From: an uncultured Alphaproteobacteria bacterium
GTDB lineage: Bacteria > Pseudomonadota > Alphaproteobacteria > Rs-D84
Length of the DNA stretch: 32,000 nucleotides
Direction of reading: 5' to 3'
Assembly: GCA_963931495.1 (NCBI GenBank)
Contig: OZ007020.1
Coordinates: 870,001 to 902,000, forward strand
A model generated the notes under the pieces. It saw nothing but the letters and a program-made list of their open reading frames with translations, was not told the DNA's origin and searched no databases. Each line of letters opens with the position of its first letter. The first letter of the stretch is position 1. This document shows, piece after piece, positions 2,144 through 31,640 of the stretch. A program made the translations under genes and the position numbers.

Positions 2144-2163
2144 CGTTAACCTCCATTAACGTT

Positions 2164-2631
2164 TTATGGTTGTACATCTTCCCCTGTGGTTTCTTCGGGT
2201 TCTTCAGATATTGTTGTTGCCTTTGCAATATTTAAGAAATCAAATGAAACAACAGCGTTTTTATCGTCTTCTAAACGGATTATGGTTCCGAAATATGTAC
2301 CACCACTTTCTTCTAAACTGAAAGTATTGTCATCTGTTACATATACACTAGAACCTATTTTTTCCTGTGTAATGCTTTCAAATTCCAATACGATCTTTCC
2401 GGACACCTTGACATCTACCTTTATATCCCCATCTGCACCGTTTGTATTATCTGCAGAATCCAGGGCAATCCCCATTAAAGTATCGCCTACTTGAAAAGAA
2501 CGACCGTAACCAGTTGCGGAACAACCAACAACAGCACCCTTAAAAATCTTTTCACCTGCGGCAACAGAAACAGCATTACTATCCGTCTGCGTTTCAAATA
2601 TACGAGTCACATCTTCTGTAAGTTTTGCCAT
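2164..2631 (-). CDS. Head decoration / capsid cement protein (DUF2190-like)
   Basis: 155-aa ORF between protease and capsid genes. Gly/Val-rich beta-type sequence (GDTLMGIALDSADNTNGADGDIKVDVKVSGKIVLE) typical of the small structural proteins found at this position. Confidence 0.5.
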   Translation of the reverse strand: MAKLTEDVTRIFETQTDSNAVSVAAGEKIFKGAVVGCSATGYGRSFQVGDTLMGIALDSADNTNGADGDIKVDVKVSGKIVLEFESITQEKIGSSVYVTDDNTFSLEESGGTYFGTIIRLEDDKNAVVSFDFLNIAKATTISEEPEETTGEDVQP

Positions 2632-2633
2632 AT

Positions 2634-3890
2634 TTATTCCCCTTTATTTTGAATTTTTATTTGACCATTTTCTTGAGCGATGAAATATGCAACAAAAGCT
2701 TCTTTATCACCGTCAAATTCTTTACGAATTTCCGCCTTTGTGTTCCACTCGTGTTCTGCACGCTCTGTTGCCGTAGCTCCAACGAAAGAAGGTGCTACAA
2801 CTTTTGCGCTAGGAGATATTTCTGGCAAATTCTCTTCCGCCTTTTTTAAACTCGCAAGGTAATCGTTACCTTTAGCTTTTTCTGCTTTTACGATTTCCAA
2901 TGCTAATTTTTCGGCGGTCATTTCTGGATCTGCTTTCGCTTTTGCCAACAAATCTTCATGTCCAGCAACAGCAACCTCTTCCAGAGCCAACAATCTGGCA
3001 CGTTCAGCAGCCGCCCCCTCAGAACGATACGCATCGATCTGTTCCTGTGTAATGGCTTGTTTGTCCATTTTTTGTACTCCTTTGTTTTGTTCAATAAGTT
3101 CTGCCAAGGTACTTTCATAGTCGCCAAGTGCATCCGCCATCCCTACATTGACGGCAGCAGGTCCCATCAAAACACCGCCTTGTCCGAAATCCTTTTTTAC
3201 GGTTTCCGGTGCCAAACCTCGGTATTTTGCAACAGCATCTATGAATTCTGATTCCAAATCATCAAGCTCAGCTCTGATTGTTTCGACTCCCTCTGCTGTA
3301 CGTGGGTCAGGTCGTTTTTTCTTTGCGTTAGTAGAAACAATTTCTATATTTTTATATCCATCTGCATCTGGCTGCTCTTGAACAGACACTGTTGAAACAA
3401 CTCCTATACTTCCCAATAAAGCCGTTCTTTGAGCAACAATTCGTTTCGTTGCTGAAGCAAGCCAATAAGCCGCAGAACAGCAGTTGCGCCCAACGTATGC
3501 CCAAACTTTTTTACATTCACATGCCTGGCGAATAATAGCAGCCATTTCAGACGGTCCAACTGCAACACCACCAGGGCTGTCTATATCTAATAAAATTGAA
3601 TGAATGGACTTATCATCAAGTGCTGTTTGTATATCACGAGCCAAAACGTCCAAACTTGTTCCGCCCATCAATAGAGTGAATAAATCGAACCTAGCCGTGA
3701 TAATCCCCTTAATGGGAATTACGGCAACACCATCTCGTATTGTTGTTGTAAACGAATGTTCTAACGGCTTTTGTGAAAACAAAGAGAGCCCCGATTGGAG
3801 CTCTCTTATATTCGCATCCATATTTTGAAATGTTTGTGGTTCTATCGCCCAATGTTTAGCAATTATTTGCAAATCATTCCTCTTCTTCAT
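2634..3890 (-). CDS. S49-family (SppA/ClpP-like) head maturation protease with scaffold-like C-terminal region
   Basis: 418 aa. Contains ILLDIDSPGGVAVG...CSAAYWLASA...GSIGV, classic S49 peptidase blocks. The Ala/Glu/Lys-rich helical C-terminal half fits a scaffold. Start overlaps the portal stop by 17 nt. Confidence 0.85.
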   Translation of the reverse strand: MKKRNDLQIIAKHWAIEPQTFQNMDANIRELQSGLSLFSQKPLEHSFTTTIRDGVAVIPIKGIITARFDLFTLLMGGTSLDVLARDIQTALDDKSIHSILLDIDSPGGVAVGPSEMAAIIRQACECKKVWAYVGRNCCSAAYWLASATKRIVAQRTALLGSIGVVSTVSVQEQPDADGYKNIEIVSTNAKKKRPDPRTAEGVETIRAELDDLESEFIDAVAKYRGLAPETVKKDFGQGGVLMGPAAVNVGMADALGDYESTLAELIEQNKGVQKMDKQAITQEQIDAYRSEGAAAERARLLALEEVAVAGHEDLLAKAKADPEMTAEKLALEIVKAEKAKGNDYLASLKKAEENLPEISPSAKVVAPSFVGATATERAEHEWNTKAEIRKEFDGDKEAFVAYFIAQENGQIKIQNKGE

Positions 3891-5433
3891 CGTTATCCTT
3901 TCCTATGGTTTCTGTTAATCCTGCCTCAGTTCGAAGTCTTTGTTCCTTGGCACGCTGAACATGTTTAACTTCCCAAGAACCACCTGTTATTTGTGCAGTT
4001 TCTTCTTCAAGTGTTGAAACACCTAAACGAACACGATAGTCAGCAGCACGAATTTCTTTCAACTGATCTATTTGTCCACGTGGAGGTCCTATCCACTCTG
4101 TTCCTAAATATGCAGCTCTTACAAATGGATCAGAAAAGAACCCCGGTGCTTCAATTATCCCTTTTGCCACAGCCTCAGTTATTACCATCTCATATACGGG
4201 TTGGCAAAACTGACTAGCCATCCAGATACGCCTTGTACTGAACGTTTTCCACGCCTCAACCAATGCCGCCTGTGCTGCTGAATAACTTGCTGTAAAATGC
4301 TTTATCAGTATTTCAAACGGTAATTCCAACGCAACACCGATTTGTCGCAAAATTGATTGTACAAAACCGTCAAACGCTTGGTTTGGGCGTTTTGGGTCTG
4401 CTATCTCTATCTCTTCATTTGGTTGCAGATCCAGAATTGCGCCCGGCGACATTTTATAGTCGCTGTTTTTGGTATTGGTCGGCTGGTCATTAACCCCCAG
4501 GGGTACCATTGGTGCCATTCCTGTTTCACTTTCTGTTTTCACAAATATTGTGAACATAGACGATATGACGGCCGCCATAATTTCCGCCTCAGTATATCTA
4601 TCTAATTGTTTAAGGCTTTCAATTACAGGCGCCAAATATGGTATTCCACGTGTCAAACCTGGCCTTATTCTTGAAAATATGTGCAACATTTGCCTATGCC
4701 CATCAGAATCAAACGCAGAGATTCTACTAAATGCCAAAACGCCTTTATCGTGATCATCAGGGTGACGATTTGCTACATGATAGGCAACTGGCGCACCGTC
4801 TGAATCTATTTCAACACCTGCCACAATATTTTCATTATAAGTTTCTGGATCGGCTATGCGATCAGCTTCTATTACTTGTAAACTAGTTCCAAAAGGATTA
4901 CCTAGCCTTGTTTTATACTTACGTAGTACAAACACATCGCCAGATTCTAAGCAAGACCGCAATACCAACGATTGCATTTCTGCAAAAGTCTGTCCACGTG
5001 TGATATCGCAATCTCGGCTATTTGCCCATATTTGAAAAATACGTTCCGCATCTGCCTCCCACTTTTCCATAGCCTCATCTGTCTTGAGATATGGGCGCAA
5101 AATATTTCTATCTATATGCGATTGAGGTTTCAACCCCGTGCCAATAACATTGGTTATTACAGTATTTACAGCCCCGCAAGCCAATGGTGCGTTTCTGAGC
5201 AAATCTCTTGATCTATCTCGTAAAACAGGCAAATCATCTAGAGAAACATTATCCGCAGAACCACTAGTTGGATACCACGTTGTTGTCTGTCTTCTGTCTT
5301 TTCTAGCACCTGTATACCCTCCCAACATAGCCAATTGAGTGCGAGCTTGCCAACGTCGCAATCCTGCATGTGGCGATATCCAAGTGATTGCTTTATCCAC
5401 AAAATTCTGGGATGGGAGTTTAATTTTTTTCAT
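3874..5433 (-). CDS. Portal protein, lambda gpB family
   Basis: 519 aa, with the size, position and acidic C-terminus (DNDEEEE) of lambda-family portals. The N-terminal region (GGYTGARKDRRQTTTWYPTSGSADNVSLDDLPVLRDRSRDLLRNAPLA) matches the lambda-portal signature as I remember it. Confidence 0.85.
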   Translation of the reverse strand: MKKIKLPSQNFVDKAITWISPHAGLRRWQARTQLAMLGGYTGARKDRRQTTTWYPTSGSADNVSLDDLPVLRDRSRDLLRNAPLACGAVNTVITNVIGTGLKPQSHIDRNILRPYLKTDEAMEKWEADAERIFQIWANSRDCDITRGQTFAEMQSLVLRSCLESGDVFVLRKYKTRLGNPFGTSLQVIEADRIADPETYNENIVAGVEIDSDGAPVAYHVANRHPDDHDKGVLAFSRISAFDSDGHRQMLHIFSRIRPGLTRGIPYLAPVIESLKQLDRYTEAEIMAAVISSMFTIFVKTESETGMAPMVPLGVNDQPTNTKNSDYKMSPGAILDLQPNEEIEIADPKRPNQAFDGFVQSILRQIGVALELPFEILIKHFTASYSAAQAALVEAWKTFSTRRIWMASQFCQPVYEMVITEAVAKGIIEAPGFFSDPFVRAAYLGTEWIGPPRGQIDQLKEIRAADYRVRLGVSTLEEETAQITGGSWEVKHVQRAKEQRLRTEAGLTETIGKDNDEEEE

Positions 5434-5434
5434 A

Positions 5435-5461
5435 TAAAAAAAGACGCACTTTCGTACGTCT
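5435..5461 (-). terminator. Intrinsic terminator of the repeat-protein moron, abutting the portal start codon
   Basis: Minus strand reads AGACGUAC-GAAA-GUGCGUCU (8-bp stem with one G.U, GAAA tetraloop) followed by UUUUUUU, then AUG of portal at 5433. Confidence 0.7.
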
Positions 5462-5482
5462 TCCCCTTATTCTGGTTATTTT

Positions 5483-5917
5483 CTAAAAACTGTGATACGT
5501 CGTGCCTAGGCTGTTGTATGACCTGGAATTTACACTGGTGTCACCAATTGACCCTGTTGTATAGGTTGTACCCAGACTATCATATGTTCTGGTGCTTACA
5601 TAGCTATCACCGATAGTGCCTGTCGTATATGTTGTGCCCAGACTATCGTATGATCTGGTGCTTACGTGGCTATCACCGATAGTGCCCGTTGTATAGGTTG
5701 TACCCAGACTATCATATGATCTGGTGCTTACGTAGCTATCACCGATAGTGCCCGTTGTATAGGTTGTGCCCAGACTATCGTATGATCTGGTATTTACATA
5801 ATTGCCGGCACTGTCTGTTCCAGAACAATATGTCGTACCAAGACTTTCATAACACCTGACCGATGCGAATGCGTTAACTGATATCAGCAATGATGCTAGC
5901 AATAACAATCTTTTCAT
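5483..5917 (-). CDS. Secreted protein made of 22-aa tandem repeats (moron inside the head module)
   Basis: Start moved to the ATG at 5915-5917 (AGGA about 7 nt upstream). Signal peptide MKRLLLLASLLISVNAFA|S. Then about 5.6 repeats of TRSYDSLGTTYTTGTIGDSYVS. No family recognised. Confidence 0.7.
   Translation of the reverse strand: MKRLLLLASLLISVNAFASVRCYESLGTTYCSGTDSAGNYVNTRSYDSLGTTYTTGTIGDSYVSTRSYDSLGTTYTTGTIGDSHVSTRSYDSLGTTYTTGTIGDSYVSTRTYDSLGTTYTTGSIGDTSVNSRSYNSLGTTYHSF
5486..5860. repeat. 66-bp in-frame tandem DNA repeats (coding)
   Basis: Four nearly identical 66-bp units (about 5528-5791) flanked by more diverged units. They encode the 22-aa repeats of the 5483-5917 protein. Confidence 0.9.
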
Positions 5918-5938
5918 AAACAAATCCTTTGTTCTTGC

Positions 5939-5966
5939 ATTGTAGAACAATTATTACAAATTGCAA
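5939..5966 (-). promoter_or_regulatory. Sigma70-like promoter of the repeat-protein moron
   Basis: Minus strand: TTGCAA (5961-5966), 16-nt spacer, TACAAT (5939-5944). It lies directly after the gpW stop and about 20 nt before the moron RBS. Confidence 0.5.
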
Positions 5967-6188
5967 TCAAAATGGCGTTGCACCACGAACACGAATTCCG
6001 CCACGACGTTTCTGGGTCACTTTGTTTTGGAGGTATTCTTCTCGTTGTTGCAATGCTATAAGGTCAGCTTTCCTAACTTTCTGACCATTATAGCTAGCCT
6101 CTTGAGCACCACTTAAAATGTCCGATATTGCCTGTTGTACTTCAATTAGTTGTTCCTCATAGGACTTTATTTTTGGTGTATCCGTCAT
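5967..6188 (-). CDS. Head-tail joining protein gpW family
   Basis: 73 aa, with a 4-nt overlap to the TerL stop. Small helical protein in the lambda W position with a similar pattern (EEQLIEVQQAISDILSGAQEASYNGQKVRKADLIALQQREEYL). Confidence 0.7.
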   Translation of the reverse strand: MTDTPKIKSYEEQLIEVQQAISDILSGAQEASYNGQKVRKADLIALQQREEYLQNKVTQKRRGGIRVRGATPF

Positions 6189-8059
6189 TGTATTCCTCGA
6201 CTTCTAACCGTTCGCCTGTGCATCACAATGTTTGATTGTTCCTCCAAAGGCACTATCGGTTTCTTTTTTGTTTTCATTTTCAATTCCGCAAGTCTATCCG
6301 CACCCAAATCAAGATTTAGACGATAATTACGAACAAGACCTCGTAATGCCGCATATGCATAAACTCGACAATCTAAACCCTCGGTTCTAACCCCATCTTT
6401 ACGAGGGGTCCATTCTCTTATCAACCTGCCTTTACTGAGTTTTTTATGAACGACCTCATTGGTAACCTGTTCAAACCATTCTATTTCTCTATCGTATGGG
6501 AAATGCCAAACACCAGGACCACTACTGTCTTCAAGATGCAAACGACGCATCAAAATATCTTTAGCATCGTTGACTCCTATTACATATACTGGTTTTTGGG
6601 TTTTATAGCTTTTACTTGCGGTTGCCGGCCAAATAGGCTTACCTACACCACCAACACCTTTAATTGCCCAAACCCCATGTAAACGCCTGGCATAACAATA
6701 GTTGATAACATAGTCGGTATAGTGACCACCACTATCTACGCATGTTGCAGATATATGCATATCCGGAGTATCTTTGCTGTGCGGATATGCACGACAAAGT
6801 ATTTCGTCCAATTGTCCCCACAGTTCTGGTGAGCTTGGGTCACCATATAAGACTTGATAATCAATAGACCAAGATTCCTCACCACGTCCCCAACCGACAA
6901 TTTCTAACTCTAAACGGTTGTCTTGAACGTCAACACCGCAAGTCAGCACAACCACTCCTGCTGGCAAATCTTGCCCCCAACGTTCACGTCTTGCCATTAA
7001 ACTAGTCGGATCCACTTGTTCACCAGCCATATCCTGCCATGTTTCTGCCAATTTTGTGTTGGTCCACACCTGTAAACGTGACGGGTCGTCTTTGGAATTC
7101 AGAAAATCTCGTGCAATTTCTGTCCAACTTGTCCATCCATGTGGAGAATATAACGACGATAGGTGAAAAGACGCAATTTTCTTGTTTTCTGGGTGATGGG
7201 CAATCCATTTCCCTTTGCTAAGTATCTGATCTTTTTGCCAATCGTGCCATAAATCACCGCACTTCTCACACTTATAACACGCCTCTGTAAGTTTTTTAGG
7301 GTCAAACACCAAATTTTTCCAACGCAAAATTTGCATATGCCCACAACTCGGGCAAGGAACATAATAATAGCGTTGATCACCCTCTAAAAATGCTTGTTCT
7401 ATTCTGCTCGCATCTTTAATTGTTGGTGTAGACACCATAAAAATCTTTCTATTACTAAACGTGGCGGTTCTTTGTACTGCTAAATCTACTGGATCGCCCT
7501 CTGAACCTGCATCGTCAGGGAATCCATCTACCTCGTCTAAGAAAAGGTAGCGAACTGGCATAGAACGTAATCCGACAGGCGAATTTGCACCTGTCAATAT
7601 CAGAATTCCACCCGGAAATTCTTTTAACAGTATCGTATTTCCGCTATCTTTTGCCCGTGGACTGCTTATTTTTTCTTTTAATACTGGGCAACTTTCAATG
7701 GCAGGATCAATACGCATTTTTGAATTGCGCTTTGCCATTTCAGTTGTTGGGTTTACAACCAGCATTGGTCCAGGTGCATTGCAAATGCAAAACCCCATCC
7801 AATTGTTTCCGCACTCGGTTCCTCCGATTTGTGCGCCTTTCATCAAAATTACTCGTTCGCACGGATTATGCGGAGACAAACAATCCATGATTTCTTGTAA
7901 ATAAGGCGTCCTAGAGGTTTGCCATTTTCCTGGTTCACTTGAAGCAATGCTGGACAAAATACGATTTTCATCCGCCCATTCACTAACCGTTAAATCTGGA
8001 TCTGGCTTGAACCCTTGTGCAAAAGCATGCACAATAAAGCTATCATGATTCAGGTTCAT
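6185..8059 (-). CDS. Terminase large subunit, lambda gpA family
   Basis: 624 aa. Walker A-like KGAQIGGTECGNNW, acidic LFLDEVD, and Zn-ribbon CPSCGH...CEKCG, all typical of gpA-type terminases. Confidence 0.9.
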   Translation of the reverse strand: MNLNHDSFIVHAFAQGFKPDPDLTVSEWADENRILSSIASSEPGKWQTSRTPYLQEIMDCLSPHNPCERVILMKGAQIGGTECGNNWMGFCICNAPGPMLVVNPTTEMAKRNSKMRIDPAIESCPVLKEKISSPRAKDSGNTILLKEFPGGILILTGANSPVGLRSMPVRYLFLDEVDGFPDDAGSEGDPVDLAVQRTATFSNRKIFMVSTPTIKDASRIEQAFLEGDQRYYYVPCPSCGHMQILRWKNLVFDPKKLTEACYKCEKCGDLWHDWQKDQILSKGKWIAHHPENKKIASFHLSSLYSPHGWTSWTEIARDFLNSKDDPSRLQVWTNTKLAETWQDMAGEQVDPTSLMARRERWGQDLPAGVVVLTCGVDVQDNRLELEIVGWGRGEESWSIDYQVLYGDPSSPELWGQLDEILCRAYPHSKDTPDMHISATCVDSGGHYTDYVINYCYARRLHGVWAIKGVGGVGKPIWPATASKSYKTQKPVYVIGVNDAKDILMRRLHLEDSSGPGVWHFPYDREIEWFEQVTNEVVHKKLSKGRLIREWTPRKDGVRTEGLDCRVYAYAALRGLVRNYRLNLDLGADRLAELKMKTKKKPIVPLEEQSNIVMHRRTVRSRGIQ

Positions 8060-8522
8060 TTAGAAAATCCACCAAATTTTCTAGGCTTTGCCTTATTTCT
8101 TTACGAAGTATTTCTTTAATTTCATTGATATCCGTTTTCCCCACCAGCGCAGGCGCAATTCTGTCCGGAATTTTCAACAATTTATCTCTGGCAAACCTTG
8201 CAGCTGTATACGCCTCCATTTCTGTTTGTTTTAACGGAATCAAAGCACCAGACTGTTTTTCATATTCCAGCTTTTTTAGAAGTGCCTCATAAATTTCTTT
8301 TTGTGCACGACTTATCTGGAATGAAGATGCGGCTTTGCTATCGCCACGGTCTGATTGAGCCTGTGCAGGATTTGTATTCATAGACCATTGACGGTCGGCA
8401 ATTGCTGGATCAATTTTTCCGTCCGCCGTTGTTGATATGCGTCCTGTGGCTATTGCTTTACGAACAGCACCCTCAGTGACTTTTCGATGTTCGGCATAAG
8501 CTCTGAGTGATAATAAAGCCAT
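8043..8522 (-). CDS. Terminase small subunit (HTH N-terminus)
   Basis: 159 aa, overlapping the TerL start by 17 nt. N-terminal HTH-like segment LRAYAEHRKVTEGAVRKAIATGRI followed by a helical oligomerisation-like region. Call rests on position plus architecture. Confidence 0.6.
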   Translation of the reverse strand: MALLSLRAYAEHRKVTEGAVRKAIATGRISTTADGKIDPAIADRQWSMNTNPAQAQSDRGDSKAASSFQISRAQKEIYEALLKKLEYEKQSGALIPLKQTEMEAYTAARFARDKLLKIPDRIAPALVGKTDINEIKEILRKEIRQSLENLVDFLNEPES

Positions 8523-8529
8523 TGTTTAA

Positions 8530-9846
8530 TCATTTTCGTTCTGCCGCTATCTCTGCAAATGTTTTCCCAGTTGATACATGTACCGCTTTTTTACCTGTAA
8601 AGGATTCCCAACGTTTAATTATTGTGTCCACATATTTTTCATCCAGTTCTATCATTCTGCAACGGCGATTTGTTTTCTCAGCGGCTATCAATGTTGATCC
8701 AGAGCCACCAAAAGCATCTAAAATTATGTCCATGGTCTTACTGGAATTGTTTATTGCACGTTCAATCAGAGCAACAGGTTTCATTGTTGGATGTAAATCA
8801 TTATTCGTTGTCTTATCAAAGTTCCATACATCTGACTGATTTCTACCACCATACCAAGGCGTAGTTATACCGTTTTTCTTTCCTAACAGTATTTGTTCAT
8901 GTTGCGCCTTATAAACAGATTCAGTGTTACCGAATACCAACCATTCATGTTGGTGTTGATATCTTGCACGAGACAATGCAAACGAATTTTTAACCCATAC
9001 AATGTATGCTTCCCACTTGCCACCTGCATCTGTAAATGCATGATATAGGGTATGCAATTCACTACCACCCATACACACATAAACCGATCCATCGGTGTTG
9101 CTCAAGATGTTCCTCATAGCTGTCGTTAAAAAACCTTGGAATTCACTTCCAAGGTTATCATTCTGAATTGGCGCATGCTTTTCTTTATCGTTTTTCTGTC
9201 TGAAACTACCGTCATAATCCACATTATATGGAGGATCTGTAAAGGTCATATTTGCCTTTTCACCGTCCATCAAGATTTCATAACTATGTGGGTCACATGC
9301 ATCGCCACACAGCACTCTATGTTCCCCTAACTCCCATAAGTCGCCCTGGCGGTTTACCAAATGCTGTTCTTCTACGACCGGGACCAAATCCTCTTGTTCG
9401 GACAAAATCTTTTCTGATTCAAACTCTGCTTTATATTTTTCTATTTCTTTATTTGAAAAACCAAGTGTTGTTAAGTCAAAGTTGCCATCATGCAGTTGCT
9501 CCAAAGCTTGCTGCAACATGTCCTCATCCCAACCTGCATTATCAGATATCTTGTTATCCGCAATCAACAGAGCCAGTTTCTCATGTTCTGATAAGTGCTT
9601 TAACTGTGCCACCGGAACCTTTTCATAGCCCAATTCTTTACCGGCTAGCAAACGCCCGTGACCTGCGATAATTTCAAAATTTTCATCGACAAGGATAGGA
9701 TTTACCCATCCGAACTTCATCATAGACGTAGCAATCTGCTGTATCTGTTCCTTGCTATGAGTACGAGGATTTCGTTCAAATGGCTTTATCTGGTTTATGT
9801 CCAGGTATTGAATTTCCAGTTTTAAATCTTTGAAATTTATGTCCAT
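8530..9846 (-). CDS. ParB-like N-terminal domain fused to an N6/N4 DNA methyltransferase (phage orphan MTase)
   Basis: N-terminus has NPRTH...IIAGHGR (ParB/Srx fold motif). The middle has TDPPY (motif IV). The C-terminus has ILDAFGGSGST (motif I), which is the beta-class order. Confidence 0.85.
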   Translation of the reverse strand: MDINFKDLKLEIQYLDINQIKPFERNPRTHSKEQIQQIATSMMKFGWVNPILVDENFEIIAGHGRLLAGKELGYEKVPVAQLKHLSEHEKLALLIADNKISDNAGWDEDMLQQALEQLHDGNFDLTTLGFSNKEIEKYKAEFESEKILSEQEDLVPVVEEQHLVNRQGDLWELGEHRVLCGDACDPHSYEILMDGEKANMTFTDPPYNVDYDGSFRQKNDKEKHAPIQNDNLGSEFQGFLTTAMRNILSNTDGSVYVCMGGSELHTLYHAFTDAGGKWEAYIVWVKNSFALSRARYQHQHEWLVFGNTESVYKAQHEQILLGKKNGITTPWYGGRNQSDVWNFDKTTNNDLHPTMKPVALIERAINNSSKTMDIILDAFGGSGSTLIAAEKTNRRCRMIELDEKYVDTIIKRWESFTGKKAVHVSTGKTFAEIAAERK

Positions 9847-16564: not shown

Positions 16565-17788
16565 CTATCCGCATATTGCACTTGCAACATTGTTCACGGC
16601 TATAAAAGTCGCTTTATCCGATAAATGTGTATATCCCTCAGTCGTAGTGATTCTACTGTGTCCTGCAGCATCTCGCATTGCTATCATGTTTTGACCAGTA
16701 TTAGCCCCCATAGTTATAAATGAGTGTCGCAAATCGTGTATTCTCATATGAGGCAAATTTGCCTCTTTTAATACCCAATTAAACGCCTTTCTAATATCCT
16801 GTAATGATTGATTTGGATTTAAAATACTTGGGAAAACGTACTTACTATTCAAAACCTTTGCCTCTCTTATGGACATTTCCAATACTGGAATCACCGCATC
16901 ACAAAGCTTTACATCCCTTGCACCAGTTTTGCTATCGTGCAGGTGTATTATTTTTTCATCTAGCGCAACATCATCTATCAACAAGTCTGTTATTTCTCTA
17001 CATCTGCAACCAGTTAAAGCCAATACTTTTATAGCTCTAAATATTCGTGGATGCGATTTCCCTTTTGTTGGACCTTCTTCTAATGCTTTAAAGAATGCTT
17101 TATATCCTGCTGCATCTAATATTTGTGGTTTAAACTTTTCGTTTGAACCTTTACGAACATATACACACGGATTTGATTTCCTAGGGACATACTTATATGC
17201 CTCACACCAATCCCAGAAACTAGACATCAAAGACAATGCTTTATTTGCTGTAGAAAACGATGTTTTTTCTGCCCACAATGCATACGCATCAAGAATATGC
17301 CCCTCTTCTATTTCATCCATGTACATTTGACCGAATACCGGTTTTAAATACAATCTTAATTGATCCCAATTACTTTTTTGTGTGCGAGGTTTCTTATACA
17401 ATTTAGAATATTTTTCCATATAAAGGTTAAATGCATCTAAGAATAAATATCTTTTCTCTTGCTCCAGCACCTGTTGCTTAACGCTATCAGCATTTATCGT
17501 ATCAGACACACAGCCATCTATTATTTGTCTTTTTATCGCATTCGCTTTTCTCTTTACATCTTCAACGGTTTCATAGTCGCACATTCTTCCTAAGAATATG
17601 TTTCTACGTTTCATTGACGGTTTTAAAACACAGCCAAGGTAAAAGCTCACATTATCTGTTAGTTTAGAATATCTTAAATACAGACCAGGAATTGTACCAT
17701 CTGTTATCTGCATAAACTTATCGCCATGCAATTTTTTTATCCAGGTATCTTTAAACACCCTTTTTTTACATATCCATTTTTCTGCCAT
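16565..17788 (-). CDS. int: Tyrosine integrase, P4-type
   Basis: 407 aa. C-terminal catalytic block HDLRHSF...AAGHSRITTTEGYTH (R..HxxR..H..Y). The N-terminal arm-binding-like region (GLYLRYSKLTDNVSFYL) is typical of P4-type integrases. Confidence 0.9.
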   Translation of the reverse strand: MAEKWICKKRVFKDTWIKKLHGDKFMQITDGTIPGLYLRYSKLTDNVSFYLGCVLKPSMKRRNIFLGRMCDYETVEDVKRKANAIKRQIIDGCVSDTINADSVKQQVLEQEKRYLFLDAFNLYMEKYSKLYKKPRTQKSNWDQLRLYLKPVFGQMYMDEIEEGHILDAYALWAEKTSFSTANKALSLMSSFWDWCEAYKYVPRKSNPCVYVRKGSNEKFKPQILDAAGYKAFFKALEEGPTKGKSHPRIFRAIKVLALTGCRCREITDLLIDDVALDEKIIHLHDSKTGARDVKLCDAVIPVLEMSIREAKVLNSKYVFPSILNPNQSLQDIRKAFNWVLKEANLPHMRIHDLRHSFITMGANTGQNMIAMRDAAGHSRITTTEGYTHLSDKATFIAVNNVASAICG

Positions 17789-17856: not shown

Positions 17857-18033
17857 CTATACCTTGTTCTCTTCAATCCAATCTTTAATATCTTGCAATC
17901 GGTATCTGACAACTCTACCCAATTTTATAAAGTGCGGCCCCTTACCTTGAAGCCGATATTTTATGAGTGTATATTTTGCAATTCCTAATAATTCGGAAAG
18001 CTCTTTTGTTGTTAATAATTTTTCTTCTGCCAT
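17857..18033 (-). CDS. AlpA/Xis-like HTH protein (58 aa, below the ORF-track cutoff)
   Basis: Own translation: MAEEKLLTTKELSELLGIAKYTLIKYRLQGKGPHFIKLGRVVRYRLQDIKDWIEENKV. Classic AlpA/excisionase HTH pattern. Sits between the att-like site and int. Confidence 0.75.
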   Translation of the reverse strand: MAEEKLLTTKELSELLGIAKYTLIKYRLQGKGPHFIKLGRVVRYRLQDIKDWIEENKV

Positions 18034-18345
18034 AAAATGTCCTTTTGACTATACGTTCAAAACATATCTTTAAGACATCTTTTTGGCTATTCAGAAATAT
18101 CTAGTTTTATCCAATTTTATCAAACAAGATTTCTTAATTCATAATTTCGAAATTCCAGTATATATACGCAGTATATATACTAAAAAACTTGTTTCTTTGG
18201 ATTTTGGTTGCTTTTGATTGCTTTAAAAACTTTGAACAAAAACACACAGAAACACATAGAAATAGTACACAGCCGATGTCACGACAAACAAAAATTCCAA
18301 GTTTTCTGCGGGATTCAGCCATTTTTGAAACAACGGTACAATTCC

Positions 18346-18390
18346 CTGTTAATCCGTATGTCACTGGTTCGAGTCCAGTTGCCCGAGCCA
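18346..18390 (+). other. tRNA 3'-half-like segment (T-arm, acceptor 3' strand, CCA); not a complete tRNA
   Basis: ACTGG-TTCGAGT-CCAGT T-arm, then TGCCCGA-G-CCA. No complementary 5' acceptor strand or D-arm is found upstream, so it is interpreted as an att core. Confidence 0.65.
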
Positions 18391-18396
18391 AGATTT

Positions 18397-18420
18397 CCGC
18401 AGATTTCTGCGGATTTTTTT
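18397..18420 (+). terminator. Intrinsic terminator after the tRNA-like core
   Basis: CCGCAG-ATTT-CTGCGG followed by ATTTTTTT. The same element occurs at 23274-23296. Confidence 0.7.
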
Positions 18421-18489
18421 ATTGTCTATCGGAAGTCCTATTTTTGGCAAAATTGGATAAAAATGGCTCTAAATTGCCCTAGTTATAAA

Positions 18490-18777
18490 ACAAAAACACA
18501 TATTTGACACACAGTAATATATACCATTACTGCTGAAATCATCTCTGAAATCACATAGATTTCATACTTGAAATCAGAGATGAAATCGTGATGAAATCAT
18601 ACCTGATTTCAGTATGATTTCAGGGCTGATTTCAGTATTGATTTCATACCTGAAAAGAGCCCCTTTTTGCCTGCGAACTATGGAACGCTATTCCGTCAGT
18701 CACAAGACTAAAACACACAAAAATCAAACAGTTATAAAAATACGATTTTCCCCTATGTGTCAAATATGTGTTTTTGT
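18490..18777. repeat. 22-bp perfect inverted repeats enclosing ten 8-mer iterons (TGAAATCA / TGATTTCA)
   Basis: IR-L ACAAAAACACATATTTGACACA is at 18490-18511, and its exact reverse complement is at 18756-18777. Forward iterons start at 18534, 18546, 18569, 18581 and 18592. Reverse iterons start at 18557 (1 mismatch), 18604, 18615, 18627 and 18639. Spacing is 11-12 bp. Confidence 0.85.
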
Positions 18778-18856
18778 ACTTTTTTATTTTTGAATAAACA
18801 ACTGGACAAAGACGAAAGAATAAGCACAAATGCAACAACTTTTAAAGGGGTTGCAT

Positions 18857-23000: not shown

Positions 23001-23083
23001 TCTTTCCTTTCCTTTACGATTTGATATTACAAAATCACGCCACCTAAATCCAGTAGTAATTTTTTACTTATAGTTGTTTTTAA

Positions 23084-23296
23084 TTGCTTTTGATTGCTTT
23101 AAAAACTTTGAACAAAAACACACAGAAACACATAGAAATAGTACATAGCCCATGTAACCGCAAATAAAAAATCCAAGTTTTCTGCGGATTTCAGCCGTTT
23201 TTGAAAAATTTGTACAATTCACTGTTAATCCGTATGTCACTGGTTCGAGTCCAGTTGCCCGAGCCACGAATTTCCGCAGATTTCTGCGGATTTTTT
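23084..23296 (+). repeat. 213-bp direct repeat, copy B (att-like, with tRNA 3'-half-like core 23222-23266 and terminator 23274-23296)
   Basis: See copy A. The core CTGTTAATCCGTATGTCACTGGTTCGAGTCCAGTTGCCCGAGCCA is identical in both copies. Confidence 0.9.
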
Positions 23297-23622: not shown

Positions 23623-23672
23623 TATATTATGCAAAGAACAGCAGAAGCGGTGTCTTTGGGACATCCAGATAA
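23517..23672 (+). CDS. Candidate leader peptide (51 aa uORF) overlapping the metK-like start
   Basis: AAGGAG (23504-23509), 7 nt, ATG. Peptide is MQIFLYFMPHFAQCFCTCVGSYMNPPLVLTAKTKGVYYAKNSRSGVFGTSR. The Pro-Pro codons (23589-23594) lie on the switch sequence. Confidence 0.35.
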   Translation: MQIFLYFMPHFAQCFCTCVGSYMNPPLVLTAKTKGVYYAKNSRSGVFGTSR

Positions 23673-24639
23673 AATCGCCGATTACATTTCAAGTTATATC
23701 TTAGATCGGTTAATTGAGCAAGATCCACAGGTCAAATATGCCGTTGAAGTCTTAATAAAAGATAACAATGTCGTCCTTGGTGGCGAAGTTACCACCTCTG
23801 CCCCACTTGGTAATTTGACCGACTATGTTAAGGCCGCCATTGCCGAAATCGGGTACAATGACCGATACGCATCAATATGGGGCGATTTGGCCATTAACCC
23901 AGCGCAAATAAAGGTTACCAATTTAATTGGCGTACAATCCGCAGATATCAATCGTGGTGTTGTTGCCGATGGCTGGGGCGATCAAGGTGTGTTTGTTGGC
24001 TATGCCTGCCAAGGCGAAGGTAAGATAAATCGGGAATTATATTTGGCCCGAAAGCTGAACAAAGCCCTGTACGATAAAGCCCGTCAATCTGATAATCTCG
24101 GCATAGATATCAAGACACAAATCACATTGAACGACGACAAGATTGAAACCACTATTGTGGCAATCCCGATGTTAAAGGACGAAGACCTGACCGACTTTAT
24201 CATTGAAACATTGGGCGAAAAGCCAGCGCACATTATCATAAATGGTACTGGACGTTATACATATCATGGTTCCATAGCAGACTGTGGCATTACAGGACGA
24301 AAATTGGCATGTGACTTTTATTCAACCGCATGTCCGATTGGTGGTGGCAGTCCATGGACAAAAGATGCTAGCAAGGCAGATTTAACCCTTAATGTGTATG
24401 CCCGTATCTTGGCGTGCGAGAACTTGGCCGACAACGACGAATGTTTTGTTTACCTGTCTTCGTGCATTGGGCGTGCCGAACTGCCAAGCGGCCTGATAAA
24501 AACGGTTAAAAACAGCATTGTTTCCTATCGTGATCTGTGGTGCAATCACAAACCAAGTAACTTGATAAAAGCATACGGTTTAGATAAACCGATCTATGCA
24601 AAATTATGCGACAAAAGTATATCTGGAATACAGAATTAA
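23629..24639 (+). CDS. metK: Compact S-adenosylmethionine synthetase (MetK) homologue, 336 aa
   Basis: GHPDKIADYIS, GGEVTTS, GDQGV.VGYA, DIKTQIT, NGTGRY, ADCGITGRKL, GGGS and TKDASKADL all align with the E. coli MetK catalytic blocks. It is about 50 aa shorter than bacterial MetK. Confidence 0.8.
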   Translation: MQRTAEAVSLGHPDKIADYISSYILDRLIEQDPQVKYAVEVLIKDNNVVLGGEVTTSAPLGNLTDYVKAAIAEIGYNDRYASIWGDLAINPAQIKVTNLIGVQSADINRGVVADGWGDQGVFVGYACQGEGKINRELYLARKLNKALYDKARQSDNLGIDIKTQITLNDDKIETTIVAIPMLKDEDLTDFIIETLGEKPAHIIINGTGRYTYHGSIADCGITGRKLACDFYSTACPIGGGSPWTKDASKADLTLNVYARILACENLADNDECFVYLSSCIGRAELPSGLIKTVKNSIVSYRDLWCNHKPSNLIKAYGLDKPIYAKLCDKSISGIQN

Positions 24640-28740: not shown

Positions 28741-29778
28741 TTACTCCATTGGTTTGATCATAGATTCGATGAAATCAATTTCTTTCTTATCCAGCCCATA
28801 CTTCTTGTATAACTGCTTATCTATTTCAGCAATGGATTTTGACCAATCTATGTCAGACGCGTCAGAAAAATCCTGTTTTGGCACATTTGACCAAACTTCT
28901 ATCTTAAGCCCATTTGTTGCCTTTAGAGTCCCCACCATGAAACGAACAAATCTAGTTTTTAAATATTTCTGTAAATTATCCGCTTCTTTTTTACTTTTAA
29001 AAGCTCCAATTGAAATAAATGTCTGAGTGTATCCAACACCAGCATCCAACACAACTGGCTCTCCAATCACCCTTGCTGGTACAGGGTTGCCTATGGTACC
29101 ACTCGCCCCATCAGCGGAAGAAAGTAAAACTTTATAATGATCTATATTTGATCCACGTTCTAAATATTTTTCCTCAATGTATTTGACTATCCTTCTTCTC
29201 TTGAATAATCCACAAATAGGAACACTACTTTTTGTGTGCATCACATCTGAAAAAACTTCAGTAAGGTTCTCAAAAGCAGATGACACTATTCGCTTTTCGC
29301 TACCAGCAGAGCTAATTTTTGTTTTAGCTTTAGAATAATCTTTATATAGCGCCTCTAAATTAAATTTATTTTGGAGATAAACCATATCTTTGATGCTTTC
29401 AAAGTTTTTGTAATTCAATATTTTATCTGCAACACTCCCCATTTCTTTATATGGTCGAAAAAATTTAATTGCACCATATTTTTTTGAAGTATCTCTATAA
29501 GTTATTGCAATTCCGCCATTTATACTGGTATGAGGGAAATACTTTTTAGATTCTCTTTCATAAGATGAAACCTTAACATGCTCATCGTCAAGCATCTTCC
29601 TGTTCCATTCTTTTGGGGTTTTACCGGCATTAAATAAAAACCTAGCAGGCGTAATAAATGATGCTTTATTACTCAGCAGAAATGCTACCTTCATAAATAA
29701 ATGATATATAGGATTATCACTAGTATTCTGGCGCGCTTCTTGGTATGGCGGGTTTCCAACAACTGCTTGAAACTGCAT
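28741..29778 (-). CDS. Eco57I-family NPPY-first methyltransferase-like protein (345 aa)
   Basis: Start moved to the ATG at 29776-29778 (GGAGAAAATAAA-ATG). MQFQAVVGNPPYQ...NPIYHLFM...ITPARFLFNAGKTPKEWNRKML matches a short family I recall being annotated as Eco57I-domain proteins. A possible degenerate motif I (VVLDAGVGYT) occurs late in the protein. Confidence 0.65.
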   Translation of the reverse strand: MQFQAVVGNPPYQEARQNTSDNPIYHLFMKVAFLLSNKASFITPARFLFNAGKTPKEWNRKMLDDEHVKVSSYERESKKYFPHTSINGGIAITYRDTSKKYGAIKFFRPYKEMGSVADKILNYKNFESIKDMVYLQNKFNLEALYKDYSKAKTKISSAGSEKRIVSSAFENLTEVFSDVMHTKSSVPICGLFKRRRIVKYIEEKYLERGSNIDHYKVLLSSADGASGTIGNPVPARVIGEPVVLDAGVGYTQTFISIGAFKSKKEADNLQKYLKTRFVRFMVGTLKATNGLKIEVWSNVPKQDFSDASDIDWSKSIAEIDKQLYKKYGLDKKEIDFIESMIKPME

Positions 29779-29943
29779 TTTATTTTCTCCTGCTTCTTCA
29801 ATATTATCATTTAATTTAATTTTATCCAGTGGCTTAGTTTGTTTTAATATAGCAGCAACACGTGCATAATCTATGTTCTTTGTTGGTCTGCCACGTCTGT
29901 CCAACATCTTAACATCCAACAAATCATAACTATTAAATTCTGC

Positions 29944-31470
29944 TGCTATCGCCAGCAATAATATCCAAACACGTTGCAGACACCACAAATCTAGGATGTA
30001 ATTCAACCTGGGTTGATTTATAGGATGTTTACAATTACTACACCGGTATCTGTAACTAGGGCGCAACAATACAGAAACCTGACGCGCACGCCATAAAATA
30101 TGGGTGCGATTCAACCATAGGTTGTATATTTTCATATTCACAATTATTGTAACGGCATATGCAAACATATTTACATCAGTGCCATAAAACGGTGAAAACA
30201 CTATAAAATCGGGCCGTAATTCAACCTAGGGTTGAACAAAACGATGTTTGTATCCGGTAAGTCGTTATCTGTAATAATATGTAAAATATGCTACGTGCAC
30301 CGCAAAATGTGAACATAATTCAACCATAGGTTGAATTTTGCGATGCTTGTAATTCGTAAATCGGCATTTATAATTGGGGTATAATAACTCAAAACATGCT
30401 GCACACACTATAAAACATAGATGCAATTCAACCCCAGGTTAAATGCTGTAATGTTTACGATTGACGCGCTATCGCCAGCAAGAATATCAAAACACGTTGC
30501 AGACGTTATAAATCTGGGACGCAATTCAACTATGGGTTGAACGTTGCGTTATTCACAACTGACGAACAGCCGTCAGCAACAATACAAAATATGGTGTATA
30601 TACCGTAAAACATGGGCGAGATTCAATCATAGGTTGTATATCGTCATATTCACAATTACTGCGCCGACATCTATAACCAGGGCATAACAATGCAAAAAAC
30701 ATGGCGCATAGGCTATAAAACATGGGTGCGATTCAACCACAGGTTGAACGACATCATATCAACAATCAGCATACTGTTGCATATAATAATATTAAAACTC
30801 CTTATAGACATTGTAAATCGTGGGTACGATTCAACCTAAGGTTGAACAAAACGATGTTCGCAACTGGTAATTCGGCGCCTGTAATAATATATAAAATATG
30901 CTGCACACACTATAAAACATAGACGCAATTCAACCCCAGGTTAAATGCTGTAATGTTTACGATTGACGCGCTATCGCCAGCAAGAATATCAAAACACGTT
31001 GCAGACGTTATAAATCTGGGACGCAATTCAACTATGGGTTGAACGTTGCGTTATTCACAACTGACGAACAGCCGTCAGCAACAATACAAAATATGGTGTA
31101 TATACCGTAAAACATGGGCGAGATTCAATCATAGGTTGTATATCGTCATATTCACAATTACTGCGCCGACATCTATAACCAGGGCATAACAATGCAAAAA
31201 ACATGGCGCATAGGCTATAAAACATGGGTGCGATTCAACCACAGGTTGAACGACATCATATCAACAATCAGCATACTGTTGCATATAATAATATTAAAAC
31301 TCCTTATAGACATTGTAAATCGTGGGTACGATTCAACCTAAGGTTGAATTATGTAAGTTTTACGATTAGTGTCCCATCGCCTGTCGCAACATCAAAACAC
31401 GCTGCACGCACGATAAACCATGGGTGTAATTCAACCATAGGTTGAATATCAATGTTTTTTACAATCGTTA
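29944..31470. repeat. Array of 15 diverged ~100-bp tandem units, each with the palindrome TTCAACC-N3-GGTTGAA; includes a 502-bp-period secondary duplication
   Basis: Palindromes start at 30002, 30110, 30220, 30319, 30427, 30525, 30622, 30732, 30830, 30929, 31027, 31124, 31234, 31332 and 31430. Block 30396-30846 matches 30898-31348 with 1 mismatch. Confidence 0.9.
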
Positions 31471-31517
31471 TAACAGCGGTATCAAATAAATTTCAGGTGA
31501 TTTTGGCCAAGTATTTA

Positions 31518-31546
31518 TTGATTTAATTGTCAATTTGTGATATAAT
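31518..31546 (+). promoter_or_regulatory. Near-consensus extended -10 sigma70 promoter
   Basis: TTGATT (31518-31523), 17 nt, TATAAT (31541-31546), preceded by TGA (i.e. TGnTATAAT). Confidence 0.7.
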
Positions 31547-31590
31547 GTGTGGCATCCAAGCACCATAATAATTATTTATATTTTTATATG

Positions 31591-31618
31591 CCCGACCATG
31601 TTTTATGGTCGGGTTTTT
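31591..31618 (+). terminator. Strong intrinsic terminator between the promoter and the tail-fibre gene
   Basis: CCCGACCAT-GTTTT-ATGGTCGGG followed by TTTTT, about 40-65 nt after the predicted start site and 23 nt before the ATG. Confidence 0.75.
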
Positions 31619-31640
31619 CATTTGATTCAAAGGAGATTTT

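Follow-up and report, generated by a model that had tools for sequence, protein, structure and literature searches.

In the 32,000 nucleotides of contig OZ007020.1 analyzed here, hereafter called the window, a gap between two genes is filled by tandem copies of a unit that encodes no protein and that contains a short interrupted palindrome. This raises the questions of whether the array belongs to a resident phage or to the host, and whether its palindromes act as sites on double-stranded DNA, as recombination sites or as RNA elements, or are simply products of neutral repeat turnover.

Anatomy of the array

A pattern scan of the window with TTCAACC-N3-GGTTGAA, allowing up to 2 mismatches, yielded 14 matches, all of which lie within positions 30110-31446. 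Shuffled sequences led to a mean expectation of 0.12 matches, and no shuffle contained 14. The spacing from palindrome to palindrome is 97-110 bp, and the units are homologous along their full length, with 60-73% identity over the 55 nt that were compared; both observations agree with the original prediction. The predicted number of 15 units was also correct, but only 14 of them contain a 7-3-7 palindrome, whereas the first has a degenerate 7-2-7 form (Table 1). The alignment of the array comprised 11 unique units of about 100 nt. An ORF conserved between units was not found, as had been expected, and the array was not called by Tandem Repeats Finder.

A recent expansion by duplication of five units, with an offset of 502 bp, had been proposed, and it was verified: positions 30391-30690 are 99% identical to positions 30893-31192, and the longer alignment listed in Table 1 gave an identity of 98.9%. 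The duplication is polymorphic, because the additional five units are missing from the array of two other strains (L040 and L044), which is otherwise the same and has 9 palindromes. The left edge of the array (29944/45) is the start of the unit homology, and the right edge (31475/76) is the start of GCGGTATCAAATAAA, a sequence that is common to array-less strains and to strains with a different arrangement. The long-read assemblies L004/L038 and L005/L043, which are from the same strain, contain an identical array. Short-read assemblies are broken by it, and three contigs (L007, L048, and L052) stop at or near the array.

Table 1. Positions of the array, its palindromes, and neighboring features in the window
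Feature	Position	Strand	Remarks
Integrase gene	16565-17788	-
HTH_17 excisionase-like gene	17857-18033	-
Second tRNA-Asn 3' half	18346..18390	+	attachment remnant; adjoins the integrase and HTH_17 excisionase-like genes
tRNA-Asn(GTT) 3' half, then its terminator	23222..23266	+	the attachment remnant closest to the array; stacked islands end here
Eco57I-type methylase gene remnant	28741..29885	-	left neighbor; 5'-truncated where it meets the array; lacks Pfam profile positions 1-30
Tandem array	29944..31475	.	15 units of ~100 bp, one orientation throughout in the window strain; no ORF kept between units
Degenerate first palindrome, TTCAACC-TG-GGTTGAT	30002..30017	.	7-2-7 form
Palindrome TTCAACCATAGGTTGTA	30110..30126	.	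pattern scan
Palindrome TTCAACCTAGGGTTGAA	30220..30236	.	pattern scan
Palindrome TTCAACCATAGGTTGAA	30319..30335	.	pattern scan
Palindrome TTCAACCCCAGGTTAAA	30427..30443	.	pattern scan
Palindrome TTCAACTATGGGTTGAA	30525..30541	.	pattern scan
Palindrome TTCAATCATAGGTTGTA	30622..30638	.	pattern scan
Palindrome TTCAACCACAGGTTGAA	30732..30748	.	pattern scan
Palindrome TTCAACCTAAGGTTGAA	30830..30846	.	pattern scan
Recent 5-unit duplication, second copy	30884..31348	.	first copy 30381-30846; offset 502 bp; absent from L040 and L044
Palindrome, duplicate of 30427 copy	30929..30945	.	pattern scan
Palindrome, duplicate of 30525 copy	31027..31043	.	pattern scan
Palindrome, duplicate of 30622 copy	31124..31140	.	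pattern scan
Palindrome, duplicate of 30732 copy	31234..31250	.	pattern scan
Palindrome TTCAACCTAAGGTTGAA	31332..31348	.	pattern scan
Palindrome TTCAACCATAGGTTGAA, last unit	31430..31446	.	pattern scan
Promoter TTGATT-17-TGATATAAT and leader terminator hairpin	31518..31614	+	right neighbor, outside the array; belongs to the conserved gene starting at 31641

The array is part of the host chromosome

The array belongs to the chromosome of its host, an uncultured gut alphaproteobacterium, and neither to a prophage nor to a methyltransferase operon. It fills a variable gap between tRNA-Asn attachment remnants on one side and a conserved gene of about 310 aa on the other side. The remnants, at 18.3 and 23.2 kb, mark stacked islands. 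Strains with quite different islands at this locus still have the array. In the close relative L002 the tRNA-Asn is intact and an array of its own starts about 110 bp downstream, its units being oriented the same way with respect to the tRNA; the 8 kb of L002 that were covered contain only housekeeping genes. The location outside the island remnants, the persistence next to differing islands, the intact tRNA-Asn of L002, and the conserved chromosomal gene on the right together show that the array is host-chromosomal and not part of the phage.

The left neighbor had been described as an MTase-like operon with a start at 29778, but the Eco57I-like remnant extends to about 29885, where it is truncated at the array, and its open frame continues by chance into the array, up to 30201. 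The strong promoter that had been noted at 31518 is indeed present, but it belongs to the neighboring conserved gene, the promoter/terminator leader of which is retained in array-less relatives. In relatives, this gene flanks gene clusters of the LPS/O-antigen type. The locus as a whole is an integration and defense hotspot that contains P4-type integrases, attachment remnants, fragments of large serine recombinases, restriction-modification genes, and CRISPR-Cas.

Copy number and orientation differ between strains

Among strains of the same species, the number of palindromes is 0, 9, 14, 21 or 24, and blocks of units occur in both orientations. In strain L045, the array is replaced by a type II-C CRISPR-Cas system, which has an unrelated 36-nt repeat with a period of 66 bp. 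Such free variation of presence and copy number, including the replacement in L045, argues against an important cellular role. Three independent cases of a gene truncated where it abuts the array were found, namely the Eco57I-like gene in the window, a serine recombinase gene in L039/L041 (C-terminal part), and a serine recombinase gene in L049 (N-terminal part).

A symmetric site of 19 bp is retained in diverged arrays

The sole part of the units that has survived in old, diverged arrays is a symmetric site of 19 bp, ATTCAACC-N3-GGTTGAAT. In 49 units of diverged arrays, the information content was 1.47 bit per position for the arms, 0.22 for the flanks, and 0.13 for the center, the arm values being inflated because the units had been picked by pattern similarity. 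The A and the T that flank the 7-3-7 palindrome are also conserved, though they were outside the search pattern, and thus the site is longer than the 17 bp originally assumed. In L002, 20 sites with up to 3 mismatches were found in 3.3 kb, compared to about 0.13 expected, and in L002, L042, and L049 the palindrome is retained while the flanks are near-random. The central trinucleotide, which had been thought to change freely, alternates between purines and pyrimidines (ATA, TAT, TGT, ACA etc.) in 79 of the 107 non-redundant sites, whereas 25% would be expected. The best-kept bases of the site are CAA-N7-TTG, which are 10 bp apart.

Within the 107 non-redundant sites, the substitutions of the left arm mirror those of the right arm. 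Compensated pairs account for 10 of 165 non-consensus pairs, and independent mutation of the arms predicts about 9, an estimate derived from the same counts. A strand bias was not apparent (29 G.T-type and 39 A.C-type pairs). The C6 of 'AAC' is altered in 17 of the 107 sites, and 14 of these changes are C>T. When covariation was weighed against half-site conservation, as the original prediction had proposed, covariation turned out to be absent, and the arms vary independently. The spacing of 97-110 bp does not correspond to a constant number of helical turns and therefore gives no indication of cooperative binding in an ordered manner along one helix face.

Searches for further copies and for a binding partner

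No further site with up to 2 mismatches was found in the remaining 30.5 kb of the window, in the right flank (10 kb), or in the left flanks of other strains (5-6 kb). The motif thus has no non-array copy in about 58 kb of sequence of this species, which is less than a whole genome, and any binder would accordingly be dedicated to this locus. Three relatives, for each of which 17 kb were analyzed, lack the array, and a single isolated match with 2 mismatches is present in L032. Comparison of the array with 50,697 phage and 72,556 plasmid records using megablast and blastn did not reveal similar DNA. A pattern scan of public genomes uncovered one true relative, L002; two additional matches, L001 and L003, turned out to be a repeated tRNA-Asp fragment of Vibrio and a chance duplicate, respectively. 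The scan of JGI metagenomes returned unrelated repeat families only. Scans of IMG/VR for paired sites led to tape-measure coding sequence, coding repeats of giant viruses, and hairpin pairs on small contigs, none of which was operator-like beside a repressor. A literature search for the motif retrieved nothing relevant.

A partner of the ParB/SopB or the CI/Cro type had been suggested for the array, but none is linked to it, and parAB or sopAB genes do not flank it in any strain examined. Two other genes were considered. A 324-aa 'tail-fibre-like' gene was rejected as a partner, as it is a conserved chromosomal gene that is array-less in relatives. The second candidate, ORF123, is a Cys-rich gene of 123 aa that is integrase-linked and is present in or beside the arrays of L002, L039, L041, L042, and L046-L049. 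The AlphaFold model of its product is poor (pLDDT 56). The window strain lacks the gene, its family is tiny, comprising 7 clusters at 90% identity and 21 representatives at 50%, and distant homologs are neighbors of tRNAs or of an integrase but have no array beside them. ORF123 was therefore rejected as the binding partner, and its link to the array is probably a shared location.

Possible alternatives: recombination sites, neutral repeats or decoys

The palindrome might be a core site at which a recombinase or transposase acts, either with a 7-7-7 arrangement (AATTCAA-CCNNNGG-TTGAATT) or as a hairpin target. It would then be similar to dRS3, into which phages integrate, or to REP sequences, and the array would be a by-product of such activity or a landing pad for it. 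Several observations point in this direction: the locus is a hotspot of integration and defense, genes abutting the array were truncated three times independently, blocks of units are inverted between strains, and the integrase-linked ORF123 is found in or beside the arrays of close relatives. In addition, the geometry would suit the core site of a tyrosine recombinase. However, the positions at which truncated genes and unique inserts join the array are tens of bases away from the palindromes and not inside them, the points at which the orientation switches have no extended symmetry, and no dedicated recombinase is consistently adjacent. Furthermore, dispersed copies were not found in about 58 kb of non-array sequence, distant ORF123 homologs have no arrays, and the fit to an integron simple site (RYYYAAC-N5-GTTRRRY) is weakened by the CAA/TTG triplet and the lack of an L box. 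We thus regard a recombination site as rather unlikely.

A functionless minisatellite, that is, neutral repeats arising by unequal crossing-over and gene conversion, would account for the range of 0 to 24 copies, for the variable orientation among strains, and for the very recent 502-bp duplication. Conservation would then be only apparent, caused by young copies and by the selection inherent in the search. In accordance with this explanation, the substitution rates of the arms between strains were not significantly below those of the remaining array sequence (10.3 vs 11.1%, 1.3 vs 1.7%, and 8.3 vs 16.1%, p = 0.07), and a partner, a promoter, and an RNA signal were all absent in the searches made. 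In contrast, L002, L042, and L049 keep the palindrome, together with the A and T that were not searched for, amid near-random flanks; drift leaves the non-random purine/pyrimidine center unexplained; and conversion alone would homogenize entire units, and not just the 19-mer. Purely neutral turnover is therefore rather improbable in our view.

Operators of lambdoid phages and the sopC centromere had also been considered in the original prediction. According to this idea, the array would be a sopC-like centromere or an operator bank or sink of the resident prophage or island, or else a decoy on the chromosome by which a protein from an invading phage or plasmid is titrated. The embedded inverted repeats are reminiscent of sopC, lambdoid operators have the same 7-3-7 geometry, the locus is a defense hotspot, and the prophage encodes a ParB-domain methyltransferase (8530-9846). 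However, this gene is 20 kb away from the array, and fusions of ParB and methyltransferase domains are common phage methylases. An adjacent ParA/ParB operon or CI/Cro pair was not found, nothing similar is contained in the phage and plasmid records, and the paired-site scans of IMG/VR led only to unrelated repeats or coding sequence. The array lies outside the island remnants, persists with other islands and beside the intact tRNA-Asn of L002, and is a host-chromosomal element with 0-24 copies in either orientation. Taken together, this explanation is very unlikely. The chances are similarly slim that the hotspot uses the array as a functional module without coding capacity, either a chromosomal decoy bank that titrates a dimeric protein (for replication, for partition, or a repressor) of an invading phage or plasmid, or a cassette-exchange platform of 7-7-7 core sites of the tyrosine recombinase type. 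The decoy bank, if true, would represent an incompatibility-type defense without a protein.

RNA, promoter, and CRISPR tests

An Rfam search of the array did not identify a family. RNAalifold revealed a core of only 5 pairs in the units, with a covariation term of -0.22 kcal/mol, and the folding z-scores relative to shuffles were about -1.3 for both strands. Pairing between cognate flanks does not exceed that between non-cognate ones (p = 0.26/0.085 in the window, 0.75/0.82 in L002). An extended hairpin or long palindrome around the core was also rejected, as extra pairing is suggested by single units but is not specific to cognate flanks, and extended symmetry is absent in L039. L001, in which the palindrome takes the place of a D-arm, had led to the idea of tRNA-like units, but a tRNA or Rfam signal was not detected in the array. 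Internal sigma-70 promoters were not substantiated either: TTYACA-17-TRTAAT pairs and TATAAA motifs are present, but the number of promoter-like sites in the array is not above that of shuffles (14 vs 10.3 +/- 3.1). U-tract terminators are absent from the units. Covarying structure and a promoter and terminator per gene or array, which characterize structured RNA families, were thus not found in the array. CRISPR arrays consist of identical repeats of 24-48 nt between unique spacers of uniform length, usually next to cas genes and a leader. Spacers are absent here because the whole 100-bp units are homologous, and cas genes were not found in the window.

An element that acts as RNA or as a single-strand hairpin, be it a set of tandem small-RNA genes, a CRISPR-like or ToxI-like RNA processed from repeats, or a stack of terminators, is the least credible explanation, because the possible stem of 7 bp with a 3-nt loop, the TATAAA-like motif 10-12 nt upstream in the window array (TAAAAT-like in L002), and the slightly better folding than that of shuffles are opposed by compensatory changes at chance level, wobble pairs without strand preference, a negligible covariation term and flanks that do not co-vary, the lack of a U-tract, an Rfam match, and a promoter excess, the occurrence of both unit orientations relative to neighboring genes, and the absence of a cas or toxN-like gene tied to the array.

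Interpretation and significance

The pattern of conservation supports a two-fold-symmetric site in double-stranded DNA rather than an RNA or a CRISPR repeat. The earlier preference for the site of a dimeric DNA-binding protein over an RNA loop or CRISPR repeats thus appears justified, given that covariation, an Rfam family, and a spacer architecture are lacking. The sequence pattern leads us to infer that a DNA-binding protein or a recombinase with two-fold symmetry would recognize the 19-bp site. Our preferred, still tentative reading, to which we assign a probability of about 40%, is that of a lineage-specific, strain-hypervariable intergenic array of the host, the 19-bp sites of which are read as double-stranded DNA by a dimeric protein acting in trans. 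Each unit of about 100 bp contributes one site that is kept while the remaining unit drifts. The two arms behave as independent and equivalent half-sites, with CAA and TTG one helical turn apart and a flexible alternating purine/pyrimidine center between them. The putative dimeric binder, supplied in trans, could be of the regulator or of the recombinase type, and recombination between units would lead to growth, shrinkage, and inversion of the array as well as to deletions into its neighbors.

As it stands, the array is a curiosity, the practical use of which is that of a VNTR-like marker for strain typing. If a dedicated protein binds the 19-bp site, the array would represent a previously undescribed repeat family in poorly known gut Alphaproteobacteria. 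The site would then be situated where the species swaps defense systems (restriction-modification, GmrSD-type, toxin-antitoxin, and CRISPR-Cas), and the array could help to explain how such hotspots are organized or insulated.

Comparison with known systems

Exchangeable gene modules at the locus are reminiscent of integrons, and ATTCAAC-N5-GTTGAAT formally fits the RYYYAAC ... GTTRRRY consensus of attC sites. However, attC sites are 57-141 bp long and contain R''/L''...L'/R' boxes with invariant AAC/GTT, whereas the array site has 19 bp and one pair of arms, without a second (L) core-site pair and without the architecture of extrahelical bases. Because CAA/TTG and not AAC/GTT is best kept, a simple attC site was rejected. 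In comparison with CALINs, the 'cassettes' would be about 80 bp long, mutually homologous, and non-coding, and an IntI gene was not seen. Integrons have been reported to be absent from Alphaproteobacteria.

Lambda operators share the two-fold 7-3-7 geometry, but these 17-bp sites overlap divergent promoters and form triplets about 20-24 bp apart that are flanked by cI and cro. The array has a spacing of about 100 bp, its copy number ranges from 0 to 24 among strains, and neither a promoter excess nor adjacent genes of the CI/Cro type were found. The sopC centromere of the F plasmid is likewise a direct repeat with an embedded inverted repeat. Its 43-bp units are located beside sopAB, in contrast to the units of about 100 bp analyzed here, which adjoin no ParB/SopB or ParA genes. 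A centromere of this kind would be expected to lie next to such genes on its own replicon and to be bound by the ParB/SopB-type protein.

REP/BIME elements and VNTRs of the MIRU type are also intergenic palindromic or tandem units with a copy number that is polymorphic between strains. IHF and gyrase, both host proteins, bind to some of the REP/BIME elements. These elements occur in hundreds of dispersed copies, usually in alternating orientation, and are associated with RAYT transposases, whereas dispersal of the array units, which the original prediction had named as the sign of a generic REP/MITE family, was not observed in about 58 kb. MIRUs differ from the array in that they lack a conserved palindrome.

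The NIMEs of Neisseria are units of 50-150 bp that are bounded by a 20-bp inverted repeat, dRS3 (ATTCCC-N8-GGGAAT), which is a demonstrated target of phage integration. The array is not a NIME/dRS3 element: sequence similarity is absent, and the palindromes differ in sequence and geometry. NIMEs are present at many loci, whereas the array has so far been found at one locus per genome, and phage integration was shown for dRS3 alone. Nevertheless, both consist of non-coding, drifting units of about 100 bp, each with a short and strongly conserved interrupted palindrome, and both are strain-variable and located near genes for surface structures and integration sites of mobile elements. The array is best regarded as a new lineage-specific intergenic repeat array that is NIME-like in its architecture.

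Architecture of the palindrome array

The palindrome array of the original prediction was borne out. A scan allowing at most two mismatches to TTCAACC-N3-GGTTGAA yielded 14 matches in the window, all within 30110-31446, whereas shuffled sequences predicted 0.12. Neighbouring palindromes are spaced 97-110 bp apart, and the homology between copies spans the entire unit, which has the consensus ..AAYAATAT-CAAAACAYGNTGCANACACTATAAAACATGGGTGCG-ATTCAACC-N3-GGTTGAAY-N7-ATNTTYACAATT... The predicted duplication of a 5-unit block was also confirmed, with an offset of 502 bp and 99% identity. Because same-strain long-read assemblies contain an identical array, it is not an assembly artefact.

Features of the window, and palindrome numbers in strains of the source species
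Feature	Window position	Detail
Lambda-type prophage head genes		TerL, portal, protease, major capsid protein
P4-type integrase	16565-17788	
HTH_17 excisionase-like gene		
Defence-type gene run		GmrSD_N, PD-(D/E)XK, N4/N6 and Dam methyltransferases, MetK-like, SocA/Panacea, Eco57I-like
215-bp direct repeats	18202-18416 and 23074-23293	91% identity
Array left limit	29944/45	unit homology begins
Degenerate palindrome copy	30002-30017	7-2-7 form
Array right limit	31475/76	sequence common to all strains starts
Leader at array right edge	31518-31640	strong promoter TTGATT-17-TGATATAAT, then leader terminator, then conserved gene
Source strain		14 palindromes
L040, L044		9 palindromes; window array without the duplication
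L039, L041, L046, L047		21 palindromes
L042		24 palindromes; low-coverage contig, may be chimeric
L045		0 palindromes; gap holds Cas9, Cas1, Cas2 and a 53-repeat type II-C CRISPR array

A symmetric 19-bp site in each unit

Across 49 units from diverged arrays, the information per position was 1.47 bit in the arms (the 7-nt half-sites), a figure inflated by the selection of sites with the pattern itself, 0.22 in the flanks and 0.13 in the 3-nt centre. An A before and a T after the 17-mer were conserved though they lie outside the search pattern, and therefore the site is the 19-mer ATTCAACC-N3-GGTTGAAT. Substitutions were counted over 107 non-redundant sites. They were mirrored between the arms: C>T at left-arm positions 6 and 7 has its counterpart in G>A in the right arm, and position 2 shows both T>A and A>T. 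Conservation was highest at C3-A4-A5 and at the partner bases T-T-G, which lie one helical turn away, and the centre alternated between purine and pyrimidine in 74% of the sites, compared with 25% expected. Unit spacing did not equal a fixed number of helical turns, and between-strain substitution rates were not significantly lower in the arms than in the rest of the array.

Compensation was close to chance: 10 of 165 non-consensus pairs were compensated, and about 9 were predicted by independent arm mutation, as estimated from the counts. G.T-type (29) and A.C-type (39) pairs revealed no strand preference. RNAalifold analysis of 18 units recovered the core stem only (covariation term -0.22 kcal/mol), and both strands gave folding z-scores of about -1.3. 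Pairing between the flanks of one unit was no better than between flanks taken from different units, an Rfam search of the array gave no match, and promoter-like sites were not enriched in it. An RNA or single-strand hairpin does not fit the conservation, the substitution pattern or the folding, Rfam and promoter results. The earlier argument for a protein site rather than an RNA thus holds, and the pattern fits a two-fold-symmetric double-stranded DNA site that would be read half-site by half-site.

Chromosomal setting

Both 215-bp repeats terminate in the exact 3' half of tRNA-Asn(GTT) with its terminator, and they bracket a restriction-modification/GmrSD cassette; the intact tRNA-Asn lies outside the window. 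The repeats are remnants of islands stacked at tRNA-Asn and point to related islands having accreted there in tandem. The array is to the right of both attachment remnants and therefore outside those islands. At its left edge, the Eco57I-type methylase gene lacks the first ~30 profile positions, and its open frame merely continues into the repeats.

The islands and prophage contain further features. At 18530-18650, just inside the second island, TGAAATCA/TGATTTCA occurs about 12 times in a dense cluster, in either orientation, flanked by inverted AAAAACACATATTTGACACA copies at ~18484-18510 and ~18757-18783; this looks like an iteron or operator cluster, i.e. the island's replication origin or regulatory region. 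Between the prophage portal and terminase genes is a 66-bp tandem repeat (5556-5800; 3.7 copies, 89% matches). The short (336-aa) MetK-like S-adenosylmethionine synthetase (23629-24639), located beside DNA methyltransferases in the island, might provide SAM from there or act as a counter-defence gene.

On the full contig, the right-hand gene encodes 324 aa, and the genes after it are ordinary chromosomal ones (adh_short, TPP enzyme, PAP2, PagL, DHFR). It has a T7-tail-fibre-like N-terminus (PHROG 1640; family of ~310 aa). Its ~300-aa homologues number in the hundreds, and the few with names come from MAGs labelled 'Alphaproteobacteria bacterium'. The original prediction could have mistaken it for a tail fibre; it is a conserved chromosomal gene. 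In three array-less relatives, its homologue flanks LPS/O-antigen-type clusters. A TGATATAAT-type promoter and then one or two intrinsic terminators always precede the ribosome-binding site (window, L032, L034, L036), which suggests attenuation or antitermination control. Because the array-less relatives keep the same leader, the strong promoter belongs to this gene and not to the array. With the array outside the islands and the promoter assigned to the neighbour, the original framing as a phage operator or centromere fails.

Strain variation and relatives

Further strains of the source species, recovered through the exact 324-aa protein, varied in palindrome number. In L039 and L041, unit blocks occur in both orientations and enclose a 123-aa ORF. 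Three independent settings show truncated genes next to the array: the window has the Eco57I-like gene, L039/L041 a C-terminal fragment of a serine recombinase, and L049 an N-terminal one. Strain variation and truncated neighbours thus characterize the array as a fast-evolving, dispensable, recombinogenic chromosomal feature, and it sits in a mobile-DNA and defence hotspot. In L045, the CRISPR-Cas system (1215-4756 and 4916-9590) occupies exactly the array position of the window strain, and its 36-nt repeats contain a TTGATATAAT promoter-like motif.

The genome-collection scan revealed one truly related locus, L002, in a MAG from the same sampling project. About 110 bp downstream of an intact tRNA-Asn, 3 kb of non-coding DNA begins, with 20 palindrome copies at irregular intervals of 56-500 bp; the window unit profile matches some of these units beyond the palindrome (E = 2e-6). 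The 123-aa ORF of L002 is 89% identical to that of L039. The short-read contigs L007 and L048 end inside or at most ~250 bp from the repeat region, and L052 ends at a similarly short distance (~250 bp at most) from the neighbouring tRNA gene, so such loci are likely under-represented in short-read MAGs.

No adjoining gene common to all arrays was found. ORF123 accompanies palindromes in L002, L039, L041, L042 and L046-L049 and is absent from the window strain. It represents a tiny, Cys-rich ~120-aa family with its own strong promoter (L039 8753-9124, L002 119-490, L048, L049, L050-L053) and a poor predicted model. Its genes are found beside tRNA genes, tRNA-fragment repeats or a P4-type integrase, with internal deletions or frameshifts in several copies; distant members adjoin tRNAs or lie directly upstream of a P4-type integrase without arrays, one near a single TACAATC-TAC-GATTGTA palindrome. 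In the prophage, the protein with a ParB domain is fused to a methyltransferase.

The searched phage and plasmid collections contained no similar DNA or operator-like site pairs. In Vibrio penaeicida (NZ_BFAQ01000024.1, 130-760), tRNA-Asp is followed by 5-6 tandem ~110-bp units, each a pseudo-tRNA with the 3' end of that tRNA, a terminator and TTCAACC-TGC-GGTTGAA at the D-arm position; the search probably picked up this resemblance by chance. Three high-GC metagenome contigs (L020, L022, L024) carry exact 100-bp tandem repeats with TTCAACC-GGA-GGTTGAA directly downstream of rpmH; these repeats share no sequence relationship with the window units.

Interpretation and comparison with known repeats

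This intergenic repeat array is new and lineage-specific. In our tentative reading (probability roughly 0.4), a dimeric DNA-binding protein or recombinase, provided in trans, would recognize a putative site carried by each unit, and recombination between units would cause expansion, contraction, flipping and deletion into neighbours. The main rivals, both unlikely, are that the array itself serves as a recombination site, and that it is a functionless minisatellite. A CRISPR array, lambdoid operator bank, sopC-type centromere, attC cluster and known RNA were all rejected. Among known repeats, the neisserial NIMEs have the closest architecture, in which a conserved interrupted palindrome marks off ~100-bp units that drift, and REP/BIME and VNTR loci show some resemblance; the array does not belong to the NIMEs or the VNTR loci and, with no further copy in about 58 kb of non-array sequence of the species, probably not to the REP/BIME family either.
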